Virus genome (UHGV): UHGV-0098678
DNA: 38,888 bases
Origin: a virus
Strand: one strand, 5' to 3'
The notes beneath the pieces are model-generated. The model was not told the origin of the DNA, searched no databases, and saw only the letters and a program-made list of their open reading frames with translations. The translations under genes were made by a program, and so were the position numbers. Positions 3,696 to 34,952 of the stretch are shown piece by piece (position 1 is the stretch's first letter; the number at the start of each line of letters is the position of its first letter).

Positions 3696-6158
3696 TCAAT
3701 TCCCTGTTAATTGCAAAACTTGCTCTTCCAGCTTTTTAACCCTGCGTCTCATCATCGCAGATTCCAGAATCAGAGCCTCTTCATAACGGATACCGTAACA
3801 TTCACCAGCCTCGACGGCTTCGCGTACCAGAACCTTTGTCTGTATAAGTGGGTAAACTCCTGCAGAATGCTCTTCTTCCGTCACATCCCTGTATTCTGCC
3901 GGGGTCTCATTCCACTTGTCATAACAGATAAATGCCAGTCGTGACACATCTATGCCTTCATTCTGAAATACACTGATAACATGCTGCGCAACTGCACCAA
4001 AGTGCCATCTTGCTCCGTCTTTACCTTTCACTTCGATCCTGTCAAGGTACTGGTATGAAACCCATTCCACTCTTTCCCATGCGTCCAGTATTTTCTCATC
4101 AATAACCTCTGGAGCAGTCTTGAAACGCGCATCGGACAGCACCGTAAACGCTGACTGGGTAAATCCCCCCGACCATGCACGACCAGCCAACCCAAGAGAA
4201 TAAGTATTCGTTGTCGATGGTGTCATGGCTGAATCAGAAAACTGTATATATTCTGAATTTCCAGTAGATATTCGAATATTTCCATTTATTAGCGACATAG
4301 TGCCTTTAGTATTATCACTATTGAATAATTTCAATTGCGAACTTATACCGCCTCCCACAGCCAGAGATACATCGCCTTCAGCAAGCATTCTGAATTTATC
4401 TGCAGAAACAAGCGTCTGGTTAGCAAGGTTAAAATATTTAACCCACCATTCAAAACGCCCTGACATAGTCCCAACGTACTGACCAAGCGCAGGGACGTGA
4501 ACAACATTGCTATTTGTAGTGCCGTCTATACTGGAAATACCAGTCACCGCTGATGCAGAACTCAGAATATTATTTCTGTCACCCGGATGTTTAATTTCAA
4601 CAAAGTTCCTGATACACCCTTCCTCGAAGGTAACCACGCCGGAAGAACTATACATGGGGAATATTGACGCATAATTACTGCGTGCAGCATCTAAGAAACG
4701 AATGGTTGTAGATGTCTGCAGATCTCCTGATTCATTTTTCCCATCACACCCAGTCATTAGAATATTACTGGCAATATTATTATTTCCATGAACGGTGACT
4801 CCGTGCGCCTGCTTTGCGTCCGATTCAGAGTAATCAACCAGCACATTCGAAATCAGGTTACCAGTCCCCTTGCCAACAACTACTGCGGCGTATTTTGGGT
4901 TGTTAGCCATTACACTGCTAATGATATTATTCGTTGGGGCAGTTTCCGTCTCAGTTCCATTGTAAACAACGTGCTGACACTCTTCACCAATAACATTGCT
5001 GACAATGTTATATTTTGCTGCTGTTTTAAGTTCCACTGCACCAAACTGAGGATAATTTCTGGCTATCACACCATCAATTAGCGTATTTTGCGATGAATCA
5101 AAAAGCACACAACCTGCTTTTTTATTATTTGCGAACCCTAAATACTCTCCTCTTATATCTCTAACAATGTAACCTGACGGAATACCATTATTCGGATAAG
5201 CGATCAAGCTAAATCCTGTTCCTCGCGTATTTGTAAATCTGATATTTTTAACCGATACATCATGGCCACCTGAAAATGACACCTGGTGTCCCTGCACACT
5301 ATCATCTGATTTATTTCCCATAATTGTTAGCGTACTAAGCATGCCACCATCGGGCATGTTAAAAACCAGATGATTACCATCTCTGTCATACTGTTTTATC
5401 GTTCCCCCACCTGTTCCGTACAAGCCACAACGTGAAAGAGAAACTAAAGATGTATTGAATACCCCTTCCGGAACAAAAACACTGCTAAACGAATGTAATG
5501 ATTTTGTAAAAGCATCCTTGTTATCATTTAAGATTCCATTTTGAGCTCCAAAATCCTTAATGCTGACACCATCACGCATCTTATCCTGGAACGTTCTGTA
5601 TACCGCTCCAGAACCATACTGAATAAACCAACCAAAACCACCAATAACTCCGGCGATTGCAGCATCGACATAATTACGCATTGAGCGATTATTTACAGCG
5701 TCCTGCTCAAGTGATGGATCGGCAAGGTTAGATATTCTGTTTTGCTTTGCATCGTAATATTTTGCAAGCAAAGATGGTTTCATCAATGCACGTCTGAACC
5801 ACCCAAAACATCGCTGGATCAGCATCGTCAGGTAGTCAAATGCATCCTCATGAACTTCGGGGAAAAATTTTCCCTGATTGCGAAGATCAGTCTCCTGCAC
5901 CACATCAAGCACACGCTCTATCGTGATTCGCCAGCCAGCAGCAAGCGGCGACGGAAGAACCACTGCACCGCCACTATAAGTTCCCGCCCCTGTTACCGTA
6001 TAACCAGCATCCAGCACTAGTTTTGTAACGTTACCGTTAAGGTCAGACACCTGAACAACCAGGTCGGATTTTTTGAAAATACGGAAGGTATACGGAAATG
6101 ATGTCGTAACGCCGTTACCTGTGTATTCGTTGTGGTCAACTTCGGTTGAGACCGTCAT
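3696..6158 (-). CDS. tail fiber / tailspike with T7 gp17-like N-terminal adaptor, central beta-helix-like region and C-terminal S74-type intramolecular chaperone domain
   Basis: 820 aa. N-terminus (YTGNGVTTSFPYTF ... NRISNLADPSLEQDAVNNRSMRNYV) matches the T7 tail-fiber N-terminal domain pattern; C-terminus contains SDARFK and a coiled-coil tail typical of self-cleaving chaperone domains; SD GGAG 8 nt upstream of ATG 6158. Confidence 0.75.
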   Translation of the reverse strand: MTVSTEVDHNEYTGNGVTTSFPYTFRIFKKSDLVVQVSDLNGNVTKLVLDAGYTVTGAGTYSGGAVVLPSPLAAGWRITIERVLDVVQETDLRNQGKFFPEVHEDAFDYLTMLIQRCFGWFRRALMKPSLLAKYYDAKQNRISNLADPSLEQDAVNNRSMRNYVDAAIAGVIGGFGWFIQYGSGAVYRTFQDKMRDGVSIKDFGAQNGILNDNKDAFTKSLHSFSSVFVPEGVFNTSLVSLSRCGLYGTGGGTIKQYDRDGNHLVFNMPDGGMLSTLTIMGNKSDDSVQGHQVSFSGGHDVSVKNIRFTNTRGTGFSLIAYPNNGIPSGYIVRDIRGEYLGFANNKKAGCVLFDSSQNTLIDGVIARNYPQFGAVELKTAAKYNIVSNVIGEECQHVVYNGTETETAPTNNIISSVMANNPKYAAVVVGKGTGNLISNVLVDYSESDAKQAHGVTVHGNNNIASNILMTGCDGKNESGDLQTSTTIRFLDAARSNYASIFPMYSSSGVVTFEEGCIRNFVEIKHPGDRNNILSSASAVTGISSIDGTTNSNVVHVPALGQYVGTMSGRFEWWVKYFNLANQTLVSADKFRMLAEGDVSLAVGGGISSQLKLFNSDNTKGTMSLINGNIRISTGNSEYIQFSDSAMTPSTTNTYSLGLAGRAWSGGFTQSAFTVLSDARFKTAPEVIDEKILDAWERVEWVSYQYLDRIEVKGKDGARWHFGAVAQHVISVFQNEGIDVSRLAFICYDKWNETPAEYRDVTEEEHSAGVYPLIQTKVLVREAVEAGECYGIRYEEALILESAMMRRRVKKLEEQVLQLTGN

Positions 6159-6262
6159 GTTAAATCTCCAGATAGTCGCAGCACCCGTTGCGCCGCATAT
6201 CTGGTTATTCTATTACCCAAAAAACCATATATGGATAGAAAGACTGTGAATATGAATAGATA

Positions 6263-6277
6263 TTACCTTTCAGGTAA
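6263..6277. promoter_or_regulatory. 15-bp palindrome TTACC-N5-GGTAA (putative repressor operator)
   Basis: TTACCtttcaGGTAA, extended palindrome aTTACC...GGTAAt at 6262-6278; about 40 bp upstream of the LexA box and antirepressor gene; same core as the site at 24915. Confidence 0.5.
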
Positions 6278-6314
6278 TTTGCAAAACGTGCTGGATAGCA
6301 AACAAATTATTTGA

Positions 6315-6334
6315 TACTGTATAAATATACAGTT
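6315..6334. promoter_or_regulatory. LexA (SOS) box
   Basis: tACTGTataaatatACAGtt: CTGT-N8-ACAG with AT-rich spacer, matching the gammaproteobacterial LexA consensus TACTGTATATATATACAGTA; ends 6 nt before the ATG at 6340. Confidence 0.8.
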
Positions 6335-6339
6335 ATTGC

Positions 6340-6612
6340 ATGGAGAAGATTAAGATGCAGCAGTATCACTATCCACTGGAAGAGGGATTTACCGAAAGGA
6401 TTCACACGCCGGGAGGCGTCAGGTCACTGGTGGAGGGATCGCACTTGATGAAATTACTCCGGGATCTCGATAAGGATGGATTTAATGTCGATGGCCCACT
6501 TGCCGAACTGACTGCACTGATTAACTACGTCACCAGCTCACAGATGTCTATGCAGGATCTGCAAACACATCTCGACTATTGTGCCGAACAATTACGAAAA
6601 CAAACCAGATAA
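6340..6612 (+). CDS. small LexA-controlled antirepressor-like protein (start 6340 or 6355)
   Basis: 90-aa ORF directly behind the LexA box; about 75 aa align with the C-terminal domain of the adjacent Bro-N protein (LMKLLRDLDKDGFNVDGPLAELT vs LMNLLNQLQDDGHDVSGAAAELT; QDLQTH vs RDIQTH). Confidence 0.55.
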   Translation: MEKIKMQQYHYPLEEGFTERIHTPGGVRSLVEGSHLMKLLRDLDKDGFNVDGPLAELTALINYVTSSQMSMQDLQTHLDYCAEQLRKQTR

Positions 6613-6643
6613 GGTTTGAAATTACCAAATGGAGTGCTTATAT

Positions 6644-6658
6644 TTACCTTTGCGGTAA
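6644..6658. promoter_or_regulatory. 15-bp palindrome TTACC-N5-GGTAA (putative operator)
   Basis: TTACCtttgcGGTAA inside a 19-bp perfect palindrome atTTACCtttgcGGTAAat (6642-6660); itself flanked by inverted repeat GGAGTGC/GCACTCC. Confidence 0.45.
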
Positions 6659-6751
6659 ATTTACATTGCACTCCTCTTGTGCCATAGTAATCAGGCACTG
6701 GCAAAATCCAGTGCCGGGATTGGTCTCCCGGATTACTACAGAGGCACATAT

Positions 6752-6771
6752 GCCGCATAAGCGGTTTTTTT
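6752..6771 (+). terminator. weak rho-independent terminator candidate
   Basis: Short GC stem (CCGC ataa GCGG) followed by seven T residues, about 140 nt downstream of the small antirepressor ORF. Confidence 0.3.
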
Positions 6772-6925
6772 ATGTGTAAAGCGCACCTATTCTATGGTGG
6801 GCTGTGTGGGGGCACCGAAAGGTGCGCCGGGTTCCTTTGTAGCCGGTAAGACCAACTCTGCACAGTTCACCACCATCTGATTGGTCTCAGCGGTGGTGAT
6901 TAACCTAACTACAAAGGTGATCGCC

Positions 6926-7618
6926 ATGAATACCAAACCTTCCATCTTTTCCTTTGAGTCATCCTGCCAGATCCGTATGTTCATGATTGACGGAGAACCT
7001 TGGTTTGTCACCAAAGATGTGTGCAATGCTTTGAATATTGATGTTACACAAGCGAGAAAACTTGATAAAAAAGGCTGGAACAAAAAGGGGCTGTATTCAA
7101 TACAGACCCCTGGTGGAATACAAGAACTATCCATCGTTTCAGAATCAGGTCTCTACATCCTTATTCTGCGTTGCAAAGAGGCAATGACAGAGGGAACGAG
7201 AGCATTCAGATTTCTTGAATGGGTTACAGGTGAGGTTCTTCCTCAGATCCGCCGCACCGGAAGTTACATTAAAAACTCGCTCCCGCAGGAAGAACGCATA
7301 AAGATGGTTGCCGACCAGGTAGCCAACGCCACAGCATCAGCAGTGATGCAGGCAATGAAGATAGAGAACAAAACCTACAGTGCCCCACTGAAGCCCGGCT
7401 ACCGCAGCCTGATTCACTCGCCGTCTGGTGTTCTCGGCCTGACGGAGAACTCACTGCTGATGAATCTGCTGAACCAGTTACAGGACGACGGGCACGACGT
7501 ATCGGGCGCGGCGGCGGAGCTGACCACCATGTTCTGCTACATCGTTGGTGTGAGCAAATGCCTGCGTGATATCCAGACGCACGCGGAGTACATCAACGAC
7601 AAGGCAGGGTTCTTCTGA
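6926..7618 (+). CDS. Bro-N domain antirepressor
   Basis: ATG at 6926 with SD AAAGGTGA; N-terminus FSFESSCQIRMFMIDGEPWFVTKDVCNALNI matches the Bro-N/antirepressor fold; C-terminal domain is paralogous to the small ORF at 6340-6612. Confidence 0.75.
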   Translation: MNTKPSIFSFESSCQIRMFMIDGEPWFVTKDVCNALNIDVTQARKLDKKGWNKKGLYSIQTPGGIQELSIVSESGLYILILRCKEAMTEGTRAFRFLEWVTGEVLPQIRRTGSYIKNSLPQEERIKMVADQVANATASAVMQAMKIENKTYSAPLKPGYRSLIHSPSGVLGLTENSLLMNLLNQLQDDGHDVSGAAAELTTMFCYIVGVSKCLRDIQTHAEYINDKAGFF

Positions 7619-7684
7619 CGGGCGGCGGCACAGGGATGTGCCTTTAAAATAATCATTGGCGATGTGATGTAGATTCGCGTAATA

Positions 7685-7699
7685 TTACCTTAAAGGTAA
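7685..7699. promoter_or_regulatory. 15-bp palindrome TTACC-N5-GGTAA (putative operator)
   Basis: TTACCttaaaGGTAA immediately upstream of the SD (AGGAGG) and ATG of the 55-aa ORF at 7712. Confidence 0.45.
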
Positions 7700-7711
7700 A
7701 GGAGGCGCGAT

Positions 7712-7879
7712 ATGACAGCGTTGAAAAATCGTACTCAGCACAATGAACAAGCCAAGCAATGCTGGGATGTCATTGGAAAAGTTATGCTTGGTCGCGCAAG
7801 CAAAGAGCGCGACAAGGATATGGTTTACCAGACAGGAACATCTTTTAGCGACTTCAAGGCGGCATTTCGCTCCAAATAG
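7712..7879 (+). CDS. hypothetical small basic protein (55 aa)
   Basis: Not in the ORF track (under 60 aa); ATG 7712 with strong SD AAAGGAGG; translated by hand as MTALKNRTQHNEQAKQCWDVIGKVMLGRASKERDKDMVYQTGTSFSDFKAAFRSK; stop TAG 7877-7879. Confidence 0.45.
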   Translation: MTALKNRTQHNEQAKQCWDVIGKVMLGRASKERDKDMVYQTGTSFSDFKAAFRSK

Positions 7880-7899
7880 AAGCACATCAGGAGTTTTCC

Positions 7900-8343
7900 T
7901 TGAAGTTTAACATTAGAATATCTAATAGTTTTCTACATGGGGAAAGCAACACCCCTTTCGCTGTAGACGGACCTTTCCTTACTGATGATGAAATAAAAAT
8001 CATACAAAGGTTTTTAGAGGATGTTGCCAATGGAAGGGCGCTTGTTGGAAAAAACAAGCCATCGTGGGTTGATGATAACCATGATAAAATTCCCGGCTCA
8101 GACAATTATGAGCAAGAGAATTATTGGCATTATCATTGTGGGCCAACATGGTATCCAAACACATTTAAGAATTATACCATTAACTTAAATTTCAACCCTG
8201 GCGGAATGCATTCTAATGAATGCATTCATTATGCAAAAAATGATAATGAAATTGTCATTGTTGGATTTTCAAGAGAACACATACCTTTCCTTTCATCAGA
8301 TGGAAACAACAATCCGCTTTTTAATGATGAAGAAGAAGAATAA
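7900..8343 (+). CDS. hypothetical protein with acidic C-terminal tail (moron)
   Basis: TTG start at 7900 with AGGAG 6 nt upstream; 147 aa, low-GC coding sequence, C-terminus ...NDEEEE; followed directly by a terminator. No recognisable family. Confidence 0.55.
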   Translation: MKFNIRISNSFLHGESNTPFAVDGPFLTDDEIKIIQRFLEDVANGRALVGKNKPSWVDDNHDKIPGSDNYEQENYWHYHCGPTWYPNTFKNYTINLNFNPGGMHSNECIHYAKNDNEIVIVGFSREHIPFLSSDGNNNPLFNDEEEE

Positions 8344-8365
8344 GCCCGCGCTGCGGGCTTTTTTG
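8343..8365 (+). terminator. rho-independent terminator
   Basis: Stem AGCCCGC/GCGGGCT with 3-nt loop followed by TTTTTT, starting at the stop codon of the 7900-8343 gene. Confidence 0.7.
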
Positions 8366-8436
8366 TGGACGAAACAAAAGTCAGTGCTACACTCATTGAC
8401 GCCACATTGAGGTGGCTTATAGATGGAAATTTCACA

Positions 8437-8598
8437 ATGAAAAAAGCATTTGCTGCACTGTTCGTTTTGTTGTCTCTGGTAGCTTCAACTCAGGCCTTTG
8501 CCGGTCGTTGTCAGCACGACAGCGACACTGCTGCTGACGGCTCCCGCTGCGGTGGGCGTTCTGCGGATTCCCGTCCGGGCGGCGGTGGCATTCGTTAA
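8437..8598 (+). CDS. small secreted Cys-containing Gly/Arg-rich peptide (53 aa precursor)
   Basis: Internal ATG 8437 of the track ORF 8365-8598 gives MKKAFAALFVLLSLVASTQAFA (signal peptide) followed by a roughly 30-aa mature part with two Cys; weak SD. Confidence 0.35.
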   Translation: MKKAFAALFVLLSLVASTQAFAGRCQHDSDTAADGSRCGGRSADSRPGGGGIR

Positions 8599-8627
8599 AA
8601 ACAAGGCCGCGAAAGCGGCCTGTTTGA
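8597..8627. terminator. bidirectional rho-independent terminator
   Basis: A-rich tract, stem GGCCGC gaaa GCGGCC (GNRA-type loop), then TGTTTG; lies between the convergent genes ending at 8598 (+) and 8628 (-). Confidence 0.6.
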
Positions 8628-9479
8628 TCACTGTGCAGTTTTCGCTGATCGATTTTCAGCTCTAAATTCAAGAACCGTTTCAATATTTCTTTCCTTCAGC
8701 ATATCAATAACATTTTTATTCATTTGACTATCACTGGTTAATAACTGGTAAACGTTGCTTCTCTCTTTATCAGAGTTTTCTTTAACAGCTGCTTTGCATG
8801 CCAAATGCTTATTGAAATTTTCTACATCGCTAGTACAGGAATTTACGGCTGCTGATGAAATATCAGACGCTGAAGAAACACCGTCATCCAAACGTTTTAT
8901 AGCATTTTCTATACATGAGTTAAGGGAATAAACGACAACTGAGCGATACCCTTCAGACGCACACCATTCTAAATTTCTTGAAGGATCGAGTGGTTTTACT
9001 TCGCTGGATTGAATTAACTTGTCAAAAACTGACTTATATTCAATCTGTTTTTTATCTATAGCCCATACTTCAGTAGCTGATTTATAATTCCCCGTATGCC
9101 TATTAACATCAAATCCATGTTTTATAAGCAAATCTGCCCATGAAAGATTTATTGATTCATTGTTATGAGGCCATTTTCCTGTCAGAACCGCCCCCATAGA
9201 CCCCATATATCCGCCATATGATGGTATAGCACCATGGCTCAGTAACTTCTCTGCAACCACAGGGCAATTAATTACATAAGAGGCGTAAAGCCCATTCCAT
9301 AAAGCCCCTCTATAGTAATCGCCACGATTAGGTTCTTTTAAGTCGATAGCCTTTGATAATTGTTCGCACGTTTTGCATGCATCAAAGTTATCCTTATTGC
9401 ATTGCAATGAACTGGCAGCTGTAGGATTTACAGAGACTATTGAAAGCACTATGCCAAAAAACAAATTTATTTTTTTCAT
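8628..9479 (-). CDS. secreted Cys-rich protein, possibly with degenerate ankyrin-like repeats (moron)
   Basis: ATG 9479 lies 1 nt after the stop of the upstream virion-protein gene; signal peptide MKKINLFFGIVLSIVSVNPTAASS; AT-rich; segments such as ADLLIKHGFDVNRHTG resemble ankyrin repeat cores. Confidence 0.55.
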   Translation of the reverse strand: MKKINLFFGIVLSIVSVNPTAASSLQCNKDNFDACKTCEQLSKAIDLKEPNRGDYYRGALWNGLYASYVINCPVVAEKLLSHGAIPSYGGYMGSMGAVLTGKWPHNNESINLSWADLLIKHGFDVNRHTGNYKSATEVWAIDKKQIEYKSVFDKLIQSSEVKPLDPSRNLEWCASEGYRSVVVYSLNSCIENAIKRLDDGVSSASDISSAAVNSCTSDVENFNKHLACKAAVKENSDKERSNVYQLLTSDSQMNKNVIDMLKERNIETVLEFRAENRSAKTAQ

Positions 9480-9480
9480 C

Positions 9481-12400
9481 CTATTTCATCTGCTCTTCAA
9501 CTTTATTTAGTAATGGTGATATCGCCCACAGATTCTGAAAAGGTAGCATTTTACGGACAGCGTGGGTTTGCTGGCTGTCAAATTCTCCGTTAAGTACACC
9601 ATTTGCAACCGTCGCGGCATCACCGCCAAGATCAAAGGTAGGACCAAGTAAAGCACCAATAGCATTACGACTCTGAAACCTTGATACCGGAGGCGCACCA
9701 AACATCGCGCCAAGACCAAACCTACCGCCGCTTATGTTCTCAACGGTATTCAGCGGCTCAGAGAGCCAGCCAAGCATTCCGCCCCGGTCGATCCCCTCTT
9801 TCACAAGGTTATTCCAGCTGTAGTCGATATCGCGACCGCTTAACTTCTGTTTCATCATATAGACCATTGAGCCAAGCGCAATCGTGCCAAGCGCACCAAG
9901 ATAGAATGCAGCATCGCCCTGCTGGATACCAGATACCAGCACCCTGTTATGCTGTGCGAAGATAAACGTTTTGAACTGCGTGATCATCTTCCAGCCTTCT
10001 TTACTAAAAAACAGCGGTGTATCACCTACGCCAGGCGTTACAATCACTGAGTCTACATCTTTCAGCACTGCAGACTGGAAAATCTCTCTAGCGAAACGGT
10101 CATCCCACAGATGACTATGCCCGGTTAACAGCCCGTCCATATCCTCTCCGTGCTTCCCGAATTGCTCCCCGATTCGGCGCAGAACATCTTCATTGATGCC
10201 GACCTGTGCCATCTTCCGCATTTCACTTTTGGAGAGCGTGCCACCAGCAGAAACTTGGCGAGCCGCGTCAAGTATCCTCGACTGCACTATCATCCCAGAC
10301 CATGATTTAAGTGCGCTGTTCCACTGATTCATCAGCGTCCAGTTACCGAATTTCTGCGTCATCCAGTTCAGACCTCGCTCAGCGGCGCTTCTCCGGCTAT
10401 AGGGGTCAGTAAGATCCGCTATAGCCTTTGTACGCGTAGACAGGACATAATCAAGCCCAACTGCCATTTCTCGCAAATCCCTGGTTGCAATTTTTACTGA
10501 GTCCATATTTTTAAGCATGCTTACCATTGGTCCGAGAGATTTTCTCAGGCCATGCTGCATCATCGGTCGCATCAGATCAGTTGCAGCGGAGACAGTCATT
10601 CCACCAAGCAAACGGAGGAAGTTAATATTCCTAGCAACTCGCCCGGCACGAACAAAGAAACTGCGTGGATCTTGAGGTGCACCGTAAGTACCAAGCAGTC
10701 GATCACGCATAGCCGTAATATCCCTAATATCAGCCTCCCGTTGCTTCTCAAGAACTGCACGTCGTTTAGGTGTTTTAGCCTCTTTTATTAGCCGGGTATA
10801 TTCCTCACTAACCTGACGGATTTGCTCCCCCATATCTTTACGGCCAAACTGCGCAGTCAGCTCAATTTCTGGTGCCACCTGCCGGAGATAACTTTCCATG
10901 ATGTAGTTAACATCTGATTCAAGAAAATCTTCTATACGCTCATCAGGAATAAGCAGCGTTCTGCTTTTAGTGAAACCAGCCCGACCAACGAGTCTCTCTG
11001 GGATAATATCGGCTGGTACAAGCCCGGAAGGTGCGCCTATTATTTTATTCACGATCTCGTCAGCAGCGTCCTCTGCTTCCTCTCGGGATAGAGGCTCCAT
11101 CTGCTTCAGTGCTCGCTCGCGGCTTGCATTCAGCCTTGTGGTTGAATTTGCCCGTTTTTGCAGTCGGCGAAGCTCAGAACGATATTTCCGTGGATTATCC
11201 AGCAACTCCATATGGCGCTGATAGACAGGAAGCTCACTCTTTGCCTGCGCTATATCATCAAGGCGTGTTTTAAGGTCAGAGCTTTCTTTCATCATTCTTG
11301 CCTGAAGTTTTTCTGATGAAGTCTCGGCCAACTCTTTTTCTATTCTTGTAAGACGCGCCTGTGTGTCAGTCTCCTGAGATATAAGCTTATTTCGTTTATC
11401 CAGTTCTTCCATGAGTAGAATTTTTTTACCAGACCATTTCTCCGCTTCAGCGATTTCACTAGCGAGAGCATCAGCGCGCGGTGCTGATTCCTCTGCAGTT
11501 TTTAGCAATGAATTTATCTTTTCAATTCGCTGACCTGCTTTGTCAGCACCTTTGGCACTAATCCCTTGTATCCAGTTGGCAATTCGCCCTCTGAATTCAG
11601 TGCGGTCGGAAAGTATCTTATCGAACTTATAAATGCGGGGAAGATAACTCTTCGCCGTCACGACATCGATATCCTCAGGAAGGATCCCCAATTCCTGCAT
11701 ACGGGCTTTTGTGGTCTCAAAAATGGGGCGGATTCTGGCGGCTGCTTGTGAAACCTCAGGAATATCACTCTGATCACCACGGCGCATAGCCATGCCAACA
11801 GCTTCATTGAAATCAATAAAGTTCATCCTCTTCACGCCGCGGGCGCTGACAGATTTGCTGTACTGCTGGTAAGCATCACGAGTAGCTTCCATCTGCTTAT
11901 AAAGCATGGCGTCGTATTGCTTAATCTTAGTCTCGACTGCCGTAAACGTAGCCAACCCCTCATCATTTTTGGCGAAGAAATAGTTATTTTCGGCAAGCTG
12001 CTGGTTAATCTGACGGGAGACAAGAGATGGTGATTGCGCCAAGCGGCCAGCAGGAGTGACACTCAACGTTTTGTTAGCAAGTCCAAGTCCAGCGAGCTGT
12101 TCCTGATCGAGTGTGGTATTGAAAACCTGAGCTGCACCAATGCTTTGAGGAGAATCCATACCTCGCAAATGATTACCTACTGAGTTAACCACTGCCTCGC
12201 GCGCGCTAGGTCCAGCAAGTAGCTGTGCACCAGCACCAAGGATCCCACCAACGAGAGCATCAACAACAACGTTCGATACGCTCTCCATCGGTGAGCGAGC
12301 TTCCTGAGTGGCCTGTAATGCGGCTTCTGATACTCCCCCACCAGCAGCATTCGCCAGGGCAAAACGCCCTGCCGTCTCAGCAATACTTCCTCCACGCGCT

Positions 12401-20880: not shown

Positions 20881-20931
20881 CTTCTTTCTCCATTAGTGGG
20901 TCTGTTACGACCCACAGGTTAATAACAGGCG

Positions 20932-25251: not shown

Positions 25252-25328
25252 GTGGCATTAGCTCAGTTGGACAGAGCAACCGCCTTCTAAGCGGTTGGTC
25301 GCAGGTTCGAATCCTGCATGCCACGCCA
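25252..25328 (+). tRNA. tRNA-Arg (anticodon UCU)
   Basis: Hand-folded cloverleaf: acceptor GTGGCAT/ATGCCAC, D-arm GCTC...GAGC, anticodon stem ACCGC/GCGGT with loop CTTCTAA (anticodon TCT), 5-nt variable loop, T-arm GCAGG-TTCGAAT-CCTGC, discriminator G, encoded CCA. Confidence 0.85.
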
Positions 25329-34213: not shown

Positions 34214-34280
34214 AGCTATTGCCTGATATTTATTTCAGATAATAAATATTCACCCATAAGGTAACAAAAATCAAGGATAG

Positions 34281-34295
34281 TTACCTATGGGGTGC
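34281..34295. promoter_or_regulatory. imperfect operator TTACC-N5-GGTGC in the repressor/Cro intergenic region
   Basis: TTACCtatggGGTGC, centre 17 bp from the adjacent perfect site. Confidence 0.4.
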
Positions 34296-34297
34296 AT

Positions 34298-34312
34298 TTA
34301 CCTGTTGGGTAA
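34298..34312. promoter_or_regulatory. operator TTACC-N5-GGTAA in the repressor/Cro intergenic region (OR-like)
   Basis: TTACCtgttgGGTAA between the divergent Cro-like (start 34213) and repressor (start 34368) genes. Confidence 0.55.
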
Positions 34313-34367: not shown

Positions 34368-34952
34368 ATGAAAAGTATCCAGGACGTCCGCAGGCAAAAT
34401 CTCAACGACTTGATCGACCGTGAATTCAATGGTGTTCAGACGCGGATGGCAGAAAAACTTGGAACTCAGGCAAATCTGGTAAACCGCTGGGCTCTTGGCA
34501 AGAAGGTTATCGGCGACCAGGTTGCACGAAAAATTGAAGCTGCCGCCAATAAACCCCGTAACTGGCTTGATATTGATCGTTCGCTTTCTCAGGAGGGTTT
34601 TCAGCCTGTCGGACCAAGCGACATTGGTCAACTGGCGGCTCACAACCTGGAACGCTGGATGAGCGAAAGCCGCGACCTTTCAACACAGGGAAAACTTCAC
34701 CGCGCATCCGGCGTAGCCCAGGTGACAATCAGCCGCCTGTTAAACAATGAGGTCAGCGTTTCCATTTCCACCCTGGAGAATGTTGCATCCGCATTCGGGC
34801 GTCATGGCTATGAATTACTGATTCACCCGCACGACCCTGCGACCATCAACTATGATCGCTCGCGCTACGCATTGTTACCCGAAACCGAGAAAGCAAAGAT
34901 CGAAAGTTACATTGAATTTGTCATCAACCAGAACGAAAAAAGCAAACAATAA
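34368..34952 (+). CDS. phage repressor-like protein with two HTH domains and no S24 peptidase domain
   Basis: 194 aa; first HTH around QTRMAEKLGTQANLVNRWALGKK, second around LHRASGVAQVTISRLLNNEVSVSISTLENVASAFG; no Ala-Gly/Ser-Lys autocleavage module; sits between operator clusters like lambda cI. Confidence 0.55.
   Translation: MKSIQDVRRQNLNDLIDREFNGVQTRMAEKLGTQANLVNRWALGKKVIGDQVARKIEAAANKPRNWLDIDRSLSQEGFQPVGPSDIGQLAAHNLERWMSESRDLSTQGKLHRASGVAQVTISRLLNNEVSVSISTLENVASAFGRHGYELLIHPHDPATINYDRSRYALLPETEKAKIESYIEFVINQNEKSKQ

Follow-up and report, generated by a model that had tools for sequence, protein, structure and literature searches.

The virus genome UHGV-0098678, a stretch of 38,888 nucleotides (nt) that we refer to as the window, is an Escherichia coli prophage of the epsilon15/phiV10 type (genus Uetakevirus), and it encodes one type of repressor-binding domain twice in adjacent genes: once alone, as a small antirepressor gene (ant) behind a LexA box, and once as the C-terminal part of a larger protein that begins with a Bro-N domain and whose gene is preceded by the genes for two regulatory RNAs, IsrK and C4. 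The locus is a combination of two known modules, SPC32H-type LexA-Ant control and P1/Gifsy-1-type C4/IsrK control, that share a single repressor-binding domain. We propose as the best explanation, with a probability of roughly 0.7, that the two products are antirepressors with a common repressor-binding fold, one controlled by LexA and the other by C4 and IsrK, and that both act on the phage repressor Rep. The phage would then probably have two separate routes to switch its repressor off. Note that the small gene is already known and that each control element has a well-studied precedent; the main addition to an earlier, sequence-only reading of this DNA is the pair of RNA genes between the two open reading frames (ORFs). 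Coordinates of all features are collected in Table 1.

The earlier reading had pointed to a similarity of about 75 residues between the product of a small + strand ORF (6340-6612, 90 amino acids (aa)) and the C-terminus of the Bro-N protein encoded by a second + strand ORF (6881/6926-7618; 245 aa from a TTG start, 230 aa from an ATG). This similarity is robust. BLASTP aligns the two products without gaps at 33 of 78 positions identical (42%, E=8e-17), pairing residues 3-80 of the small ORF with residues 145-222 of the Bro-N protein. Shuffled sequences, which that reading had itself named as the control, do not come close: the Smith-Waterman score of 159 compares with 26.5 +/- 4.4 (maximum 61) in 2000 shuffles (z=30). 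Between 19 and 21 alignment columns, the number varying with the sequences aligned, are invariant across both paralog clades. Pfam has no family that matches either the small protein or the C-terminus of the large one.

What the small gene encodes is clear from its match to a protein of known structure. Residues 7-89 of the small protein align with residues 3-85 of chain E in PDB entry 5D50, the 'Anti-repressor protein' of phage SPC32H (E=1.7e-47); the small protein is 89% identical to SPC32H Ant, and gene order and upstream region are the same at the SPC32H ant gene. By sequence, the small gene is an ortholog of the already known SPC32H Ant rather than a newly found paralog of the tail of an antirepressor. 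The earlier description of it as a standalone paralog of the antirepressor C-terminal domain was right about the shared module and had the polarity reversed, since it is the small gene that corresponds to the characterised Ant and the fusion that is the uncharacterised derivative. It is also a real coding gene, about which doubt had been voiced: selection against amino acid change is strong, with a ratio of non-synonymous to synonymous divergence (dN/dS) of 0.05-0.06 (0.047 against SPC32H and 0.063 against Tyrion, at a synonymous divergence, dS, of ~1.6). The same doubt had extended to the choice between ATG 6340 and ATG 6355. Here the start is almost certainly ATG 6355, giving a product of 85 aa, because SPC32H, phiV10 and Tyrion all retain GGAG (6342-6345) followed by this ATG and because the annotations of ant in SPC32H and of p24 in phiV10 begin at the equivalent position. 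In the Klebsiella relative the ATG is kept, the upstream purine-rich stretch differs, and ATG 6340 has no counterpart.

The LexA box upstream of this start is a real sequence element. The window has three CTGT-N8-ACAG sites, this one included, against 0.53 expected, and the box is found at the same position in SPC32H, phiV10, ZX5 and Tyrion. The extended site, TACTGTATAAATATACAGTT, fits 18 of 20 positions (counted by eye) of what we take to be the LexA consensus. A candidate ant promoter, also read by eye, consists of a -35 element TGGATA (6292-6297) and a -10 element TACTGT (6315-6320). The two other CTGT-N8-ACAG sites, at 20902 and 25444, combine GC-rich spacers with a context that is not conserved and were rejected as LexA boxes, their occurrence being taken as chance. 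In SPC32H, ant is reported to be expressed after LexA self-cleavage (Kim & Ryu 2013, cited in PMC7380047). Ant, itself a tetramer, then binds two Rep dimers and so breaks up the tetrameric Rep on which operator binding depends (PMC9638917, PMC9986798).

The large protein is, on the evidence of its profile matches, a Bro-N domain followed by a linker and an Ant-like C-terminal domain. Residues 16-106 match Pfam family Bro-N (PF02498, E=1.8e-13, 51.4 bits against a gathering score of 25.6), residues 149-225 match 5D50 chain E (E=1.6e-13), and residues 147-228 match PHROG 450, the family of the small Ant, which is labelled 'unknown function' (E=4.8e-37). The linker is predicted to be helical, with low model confidence. 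The idea of a single repressor-binding module, present alone behind a LexA box and again fused to Bro-N, is borne out in that both proteins match chain E and the window also has a gene for a Rep homolog. Purifying selection acts on the C-terminal domain, with dN/dS of ~0.25 between genera. One cluster of 355 members (P0183) is 99% identical to the fusion protein of the window, and homologs over the full length come from Escherichia, Salmonella, Klebsiella, Citrobacter, Enterobacter, Pluralibacter and Shigella, where the annotation says no more than BRO-N or 'anti-repressor'. The fusion does not qualify as a small LexA-controlled protein itself: it has 230 aa and an IsrK/C4 leader of its own, and the sole AT-rich LexA box precedes the small gene. 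In phiV10 (locus L001, 3765-4444) two genes, p23 (194 aa) and p22 (29 aa), stand in place of a single Bro-N::Ant gene, and a tblastn search picks up the C-terminal domain as two fragments; the gene is probably frameshifted there.

The only experimental evidence on a protein of this kind comes from phage vB_EcoP_ZX5 (ZX5). When its ORF4 was overexpressed, prophage titre went from 1e9 to 1e6 and repressor mRNA was down by 75% (PMC9782041). ORF4 lies at the same locus, its linker and C-terminal domain are 98.9% identical to those of the window fusion, and it is 39% identical to the small Ant. The available text of the ZX5 paper describes only the Bro-N domain and makes no mention of Ant homology, of the adjacent small ant or of the RNA genes (PMC9782041); the adjacent small ant of ZX5 is annotated as hypothetical.

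Across relatives, the C-terminal domain is the constant part of these fusions. A search of 1.84 billion representatives with an Ant-domain profile yields no more than 65 clusters at 50% identity, and these clusters mix standalone proteins of ~85 aa with fusions of 216-319 aa. Among E. coli loci, linker and C-terminal domain are 98-100% identical while the N-terminal parts are swapped, the heads comprising at least four Bro-N subtypes, AntA (PF08346, E=4.2e-26, proteins of 216-218 aa) and P22_AR_N (PF10547, E=3.6e-44, 312-314 aa). With the heads swapped so freely, the C-terminal module is most likely the part that engages the repressor. IsrK and C4 lie upstream of 85 of the 87 Bro-N fusions and all five AntA fusions, and of none of the 11 P22_AR_N fusions; the five AntA::Ant-like loci carry a separate IsrK/C4 pair of different specificity. 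P22_AR_N::Ant-like genes are present in 11 of 79 IMG/VR loci, where they are convergent to the Bro-N fusion. In the one such locus that was examined (L017), the P22_AR_N fusion (7806-8750, - strand) adjoins a divergent Arc-like gene (PF03869, E=1.1e-14; 9081-9542, + strand). Two or three convergently arranged fusion genes accompany the small ant in 21 of the 79 loci. Small ant and fusion stand side by side in phages of E. coli, Enterobacter and Klebsiella; the Salmonella relatives, SPC32H among them, carry small ant only.

The two paralogs also exchange parts. Three hybrid proteins of 84 aa (P0084, P0085 and P0094) combine the N-terminal half of a small Ant with a C-terminal half of the fused type, joined across DGHDVSGAAAE, which we read as sequence evidence of recombination between the two genes. 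In one locus (L087) the hybrid ant (6001-6255) is preceded by the usual palindrome and by a LexA-like box, and IsrK, C4 and Bro-N are missing; the prophages that bear hybrids are apparently intact. Natural hybrids behind a LexA-like box suggest that the two halves are interchangeable.

Having described the two proteins, we turn to the RNA genes between them. Both IsrK and C4 score above their Rfam gathering thresholds in the window; the c4-a1b1 model (RF03163, 6682-6734) reaches 38.4 bits, under its gathering score of 46.7. Segments a2 and b2 in the leader of the Bro-N gene are exact complements of a' (9 nt) and b' (7 nt) in C4. In IsrK, b1 is likewise an exact complement of b', and a1 (CTACAGAGG) complements a' via one G-U pair. 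Crucially, a2 overlies the Shine-Dalgarno (SD) sequence AAAGGTG of the Bro-N gene and ends 8 nt before ATG 6926. The motif TTGGTCT is present only twice in the 38.9-kb window, and CTACAAAGG once. When whole sequences were compared with RNAduplex, C4 against IsrK or against the leader was marginal relative to shuffles (fraction 0.03-0.04), and an exact-motif and covariation analysis was used in its place. IsrK and C4 are also found above gathering scores upstream of the fusion gene in phiV10, ZX5, Klebsiella phage ST11-OXA245phi3.2 and Enterobacter phage Tyrion, and they are absent in SPC32H, a phage without the fusion gene. The two induction inputs that the sequence-only reading had suggested thereby gain concrete support, in that the Bro-N gene has an antisense-RNA control region of its own.

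For the covariation analysis, 73 IsrK-C4-leader modules (30 distinct sequences) were gathered from the 79 IMG/VR loci with the C-terminal domain and from the phage loci. In 72 of these, a' pairs perfectly with a1 and a2, and b' with b1 and b2. The modules fall into four a types (CCTTTGTAG, CCTTTTAG, CCACTTAG and CCGTTTAG) and two b types (AGACCAA and ACGCCAA), with six a/b combinations seen; one of the changes between a types is a one-base deletion, and it occurs at all three a sites. The distance between the end of a2 and the ATG stays within 8-11 nt. Non-cognate combinations of a' and a2 mostly lose 1-5 of the 8-9 pairs even in the best register, with the exception of CCGTTTAG with CTAAGTGG, which still pairs 8/8 via G-U. 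In the one example inspected of a locus with two modules (L011), their a/b types differ. A translated orf45/icd-like ORF within C4 (28 aa) was considered and rejected: its frame varies among relatives, in some of them entering the Bro-N frame, and it has no NCBIfam match. Only 48 nt separate C4 from ATG 6926, and no icd-like ORF that would mediate translational/transcriptional coupling lies there. Upstream of isrK, loci from E. coli, Klebsiella and Enterobacter show no variation in the palindrome or in the -10 region TTGTGCCATAGT, the palindrome being exact in loci L001-L004.

The presumed target of both Ant modules is Rep, a homolog of which is present in all 32 phage records with an Ant-like domain. 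Identity of Rep to the window protein is 99-100% in E. coli phages (Uetakeviruses), 78% in Tyrion, 45% in the Klebsiella phage and 43% in SPC32H. For the fused C-terminal domain the corresponding values are 98-100%, 80% and 53%, the domain being absent from SPC32H, and for the small Ant they are 96-100%, 85%, 64% and 89%. Judged by these identities, the fused domain diverges about as fast as Rep. A separate observation is that ant is far more constrained than Rep (89% versus 43% identity to SPC32H, at saturated synonymous divergence and dN/dS of 0.05).

Rep might also control the antirepressor genes in turn. The palindrome TTACC-N5-GGTAA occurs at 13 sites in the window against 0.54 expected, and at 18 sites in SPC32H against 0.67 expected, three of them in the rep-cro intergenic region of that phage. 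Both genomes have a cluster of sites between rep and cro, and most transcription units, among them the terminase and head operons of the window, have a site upstream. For the copy that precedes ant, SPC32H, Klebsiella and Tyrion show an aligned palindrome, and phiV10 one with a single mismatch. From this distribution, the palindromes are probably Rep operators, Cro being a further possible ligand, and their presence at both antirepressor promoters suggests additional control by Rep. If the palindrome is a Rep or Cro operator, the phage would be held by genome-wide direct repression rather than through a single early switch.

The sequence shows the homologies, the RNA genes and their complementarity and covariation; that the fused domain binds Rep, when it is expressed and what occupies the operators we infer. 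DNA damage would clear LexA from the box at 6317-6332, so that Ant is made. By analogy with the ortholog, for which this step is established, an Ant tetramer would bind the C-terminal domains of Rep, break the DNA-binding Rep tetramer and so induce the prophage. The Bro-N::Ant gene would be transcribed from its own promoter region, as a transcript that begins with IsrK and its terminator and that, on read-through, yields C4. The a' and b' segments of C4 would then pair with a2 and b2 on the same mRNA, cover the SD sequence of the Bro-N gene and block its translation, with b1 and a1 of IsrK serving as a decoy or competitor for C4. In this scheme synthesis of the fusion protein would require that C4 be absent, mismatched or titrated, as might be the case early after cell entry, upon loss of Rep or with IsrK in excess. 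The fused antirepressor would in turn hit Rep-family repressors through its Ant-like domain, and the palindromes at both promoters would add a further layer of control by Rep.

A number of points weigh against this model. Structure prediction does not help it: an AlphaFold2 (AF2) model of the fusion from a 22-sequence alignment reaches a confidence score (pLDDT) of 62.6 overall and of 53-67 in the C-terminal domain (34 for the single-sequence model), and a Foldseek search of this weak model against PDB returned nothing at E<=0.001, 5D50 included. Since there is no usable model of the C-terminus, the claim of Ant-domain homology rests on sequence. The ZX5 assay used a GST-tagged, overexpressed full-length protein, which does not resolve the active domain (PMC9782041), and the Bro-N subtype of ZX5 ORF4 differs from that of the window (~67% identity in the N-terminal part). 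The model gives the Bro-N domain of the fusion no role. No + strand intrinsic terminator is predicted between the ant stop and isrK (6612-6695), so that the ant and isrK units may not be fully independent; SOS-induced ant transcripts may read into IsrK and add decoy sites for C4, coupling the two inputs. The timing of expression is uncertain too, because if Rep represses the isrK promoter in lysogens no C4 would be available for immunity. Finally, with no more than 42% identity between the paralogs, a different Rep allele could be the preferred partner of the fused domain.

This last point leads to an alternative that we consider unlikely yet worth taking seriously, namely that the fused domain is a specialist in cross-talk, tuned to the diverged Rep proteins of other resident Uetakevirus-like prophages, which it would induce or overcome as competitors when the phage superinfects, with the small Ant reserved for self-induction. 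Besides the modest identity of the paralogs, this would fit the behaviour of the immI-type antirepressors of P22 and Gifsy phages, which act in trans on other prophages (PMC3121763, PMC7380047), and the diversification of C4 specificities, which looks like an immunity arms race. The E. coli phages PAS61 and YDC107_2, moreover, have the same Rep and small ant only, so that the fusion is dispensable for self-induction. However, divergence of the fused domain roughly tracks that of the resident Rep (80% versus 78% in Tyrion, 53% versus 45% in Klebsiella), as expected of a cognate partner, and ZX5 ORF4 acts on ZX5's own lysogeny. Keep in mind that this alternative is compatible with two antirepressors acting on Rep and differs from it only in the preferred target.

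Imagine instead that the Ant-like tail serves assembly, either forming tetramers by itself or co-assembling with the small Ant, and that the fusion thereby tethers Ant to DNA via Bro-N or buffers Ant activity as a dominant-negative or signal-integrating modulator, instead of inactivating Rep itself. SPC32H Ant is indeed a tetramer, the C-terminal domain is found on three unrelated N-terminal domains, as might be expected of a generic assembly module, and small ant and fusion adjoin each other in E. coli, Enterobacter and Klebsiella phages. We nonetheless find this scenario improbable: overexpression of the ZX5 fusion drives lysis rather than stabilising lysogeny, the paralog-invariant residues are distributed over the entire domain, and the hybrids swap half of the small Ant for a half of the fused type. 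Least credible is that the Bro-N protein is mainly a DNA-binding regulator or has some other role, such as host takeover, and that its tail is a vestige of recombination, for although Bro-N is predicted to bind DNA (the N-terminal domain of the model weakly resembles the Ski/Dachshund and Mbp1 DNA-binding folds) and recombination between the paralogs does occur, a vestige would decay, whereas this tail is 98-100% conserved across at least four Bro-N subtypes and the AntA and P22_AR_N fusions, with dN/dS of ~0.25 between genera.

Returning to the reading that both proteins are antirepressors of Rep, a broader version of it may be sketched, tentatively and with the odds against it. The SPC32H-Ant fold could be a portable Rep-inactivating cassette that, within one phage lineage, has been built into all three classical antirepressor circuits (LexA; C4/IsrK with Bro-N and AntA heads; Arc/Mnt with P22_AR_N heads), in up to three copies per prophage, with the 4x2 C4 types forming an orthogonal 'second immunity' and with small and fused copies perhaps co-assembling. 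If so, the C4 types would set which relatives, on co-infection, are able to inactivate one another's Rep, and mixed tetramers of small and fused subunits could combine SOS and RNA-borne signals in one complex.

Table 1. Features of the antirepressor locus and of the rep region in UHGV-0098678 (positions in the window)
Feature	Position	Strand	Remarks
Palindrome TTACCTTTCAGGTAA (TTACC-N5-GGTAA)	6263..6277	.	Upstream of ant promoter, ~40 bp upstream of LexA box
LexA box CTGTATAAATATACAG	6317..6332	+	Ends 23 nt upstream of ATG 6355; overlaps probable ant promoter
ant, 85-aa SPC32H-type antirepressor	6355..6612	+	SD GGAG 6342-6345; matches 5D50_E; conserved start; PHROG 450
Palindrome TTACC-N5-GGTAA upstream of isrK	6644..6658	.	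Between promoter-like sites 6616-6644 and 6660-6688
IsrK-like small RNA	6695..6771	+	Rfam RF01394, 74.7 bits (gathering 50)
IsrK decoy/target sites	b1 6720-6726; a1 6736-6744	+	b1 TTGGTCT; a1 CTACAGAGG
IsrK intrinsic terminator	6752-6771	+	6752-6765, then T run
C4 antisense RNA	6790..6877	+	Rfam RF01695, 78.6 bits (gathering 45), model positions 1-87/87
C4 antisense segments	a' 6834-6842; b' 6849-6855	+	Loop a' CCTTTGTAG; single-stranded b' AGACCAA
C4 target on Bro-N mRNA leader	6881..6917	+	b2 TTGGTCT 6881-6887; a2 CTACAAAGG 6909-6917
Bro-N::Ant-like fusion gene, 230 aa	6926..7618	+	Bro-N nt 6971-7243, helical linker, Ant-like domain nt 7358-7615
Palindrome TTACC-N5-GGTAA	7685-7699		Upstream of ORF 7712, with SD AGGAGG
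Putative operators, rep-cro intergenic	34250..34312	.	TCACCCATAAGGTAA; TTACCTATGGGGTGC (weaker third site, two mismatches, by eye); TTACCTGTTGGGTAA
rep, SPC32H-type repressor, presumed target of both Ant modules	34368..34952	+	5D50_A, E=3.5e-42, residues 1-190
Starts of 15-bp palindromes	6263, 6644, 7685, 24915, 28079, 31905, 31967, 33913, 34250, 34298, 35010, 35072

The two antirepressor genes belong to a short island of + strand genes flanked by the tailspike gene (3696-6158, - strand) and by - strand structural genes. The region 6160-7700 is 91-98% identical to phiV10, TL-2011b, ZX5 and other phages and is matched in 543 of 5426 complete E. coli genomes (~1/10). In many relatives (E. coli genomes H21-H28 and others) an insert of ~830 bp, annotated as a hypothetical protein, separates small ant from isrK; the spacing from ant to the Bro-N start is 1152-1156 nt in insert-bearing IMG/VR loci and 317 nt in the short form seen in the window. 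The ant and Bro-N units are therefore not always adjacent. Downstream of the Bro-N gene lie two + strand ORFs, 7712-7879 and 7900-8343, with matches to PHROG 8607 and 5954, respectively, and none in Pfam. What fills the equivalent slot varies: in L087 it is a YafO toxin module, and elsewhere among the relatives it is different cargo or a second antirepressor. The region looks like a hot spot for cargo under a shared palindrome. PADLOC found no known anti-phage defence protein among the neighbouring cargo genes or in the Bro-N fusion. Weak matches to Trp and Phe leaders at 8256-8366 are far under gathering scores and were taken as chance. Elsewhere in the window, a tRNA-Arg gene (anticodon TCT) lies at 25252-25328 and is shared with SPC32H.

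In the literature that we searched, we found no description of the homology between the fusion tail and the crystallised Ant, of adjoining LexA-controlled and C4-controlled copies, of one domain reused behind Bro-N, AntA and P22_AR_N heads, or of fully co-varying C4 specificity types. The homology supplies a structural and functional label, that of a repressor-binding module with a solved Rep complex, for a domain that has no model in Pfam or NCBIfam and is of 'unknown function' in PHROG 450, and that forms the end of hundreds of 'BRO-N domain-containing', 'AntA/AntB' and P22_AR_N clusters in Enterobacteriaceae prophages. The locus also offers a compact, testable system with one repressor, two or three paralogous antirepressors, and sensors for DNA damage (LexA) and RNA immunity (C4/IsrK). 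Several related phages come from O157 and other E. coli strains associated with Shiga toxin; given this and the number of genomes that carry the region, the control of induction and cross-induction is of practical interest.

How does the locus compare with known systems? The Ant-Rep-LexA system of SPC32H (Kim & Ryu 2013; Kim et al. 2016; PDB 5D50, 5D4Z) shares with the window the position of ant, divergent from the adjoining tailspike gene, as well as the LexA box, the upstream palindrome and a homologous Rep. What the window adds is a second, fused and RNA-controlled copy of the domain.

The RNA control recalls immI of P1 and P7 (c4-icd-ant), where C4 is likewise part of its target's transcript, with upstream a1b1 and downstream a2b2 sites, a covered ribosome-binding site and variants of specificity; in P1 and P7 the c4 RNA base-pairs with the ant mRNA around its ribosome-binding site, and heteroimmunity goes back to differences in sequence (PMC12197685). 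Unlike in P1 and P7, there is no icd-like ORF in the window, a2 covers the SD sequence of the antirepressor gene itself, and the upstream target lies in a terminated IsrK-type small RNA. The antirepressor differs as well, being Bro-N plus SPC32H-type Ant, in which Pfam shows no ANT/KilAC or P22_AR_C domain (P1 Ant was not compared), and the phage is a podovirus integrated in the chromosome.

Closer in its RNA architecture is isrK-orf45(STnc1160)-anrP of Gifsy-1 (Hershko-Shalev et al. 2016), which has the same leaky-terminator IsrK and a processed RNA complementary to IsrK, followed by an antirepressor-like gene. IsrK activates, in trans, translation of the antirepressor-like AnrP, which induces the prophage (PMC4825925). 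The proteins differ: AnrP has an ORF6N head and no detectable homology to the window protein (BLASTP E=3.1), and an orf45-like ORF is not conserved in frame at the window locus. Nor is the paralogy of a small and a large protein repeated in Gifsy-1, where AnrP shows no similarity to the small LexA-operon ORF next to dinI (E=8.2). For the Gifsy-1 comparison STM2621.1n was assumed, without confirmation, to be gfoA.

ORF4 of vB_EcoP_ZX5, described as an 'anti-repressor' (Li et al. 2022), belongs to the same gene family and the same locus and differs in Bro-N subtype. P22 immI (mnt-arc-ant), finally, is an antirepressor island next to the tailspike gene, as in the window. The combination of a P22_AR_N::Ant-like gene with an Arc-like gene in a relative (L017) resembles P22 immI still more, in an arrangement that the window does not have; compared with P22 Ant, the P22_AR_N fusions of these relatives have the C-terminal domain replaced by the SPC32H-type domain.

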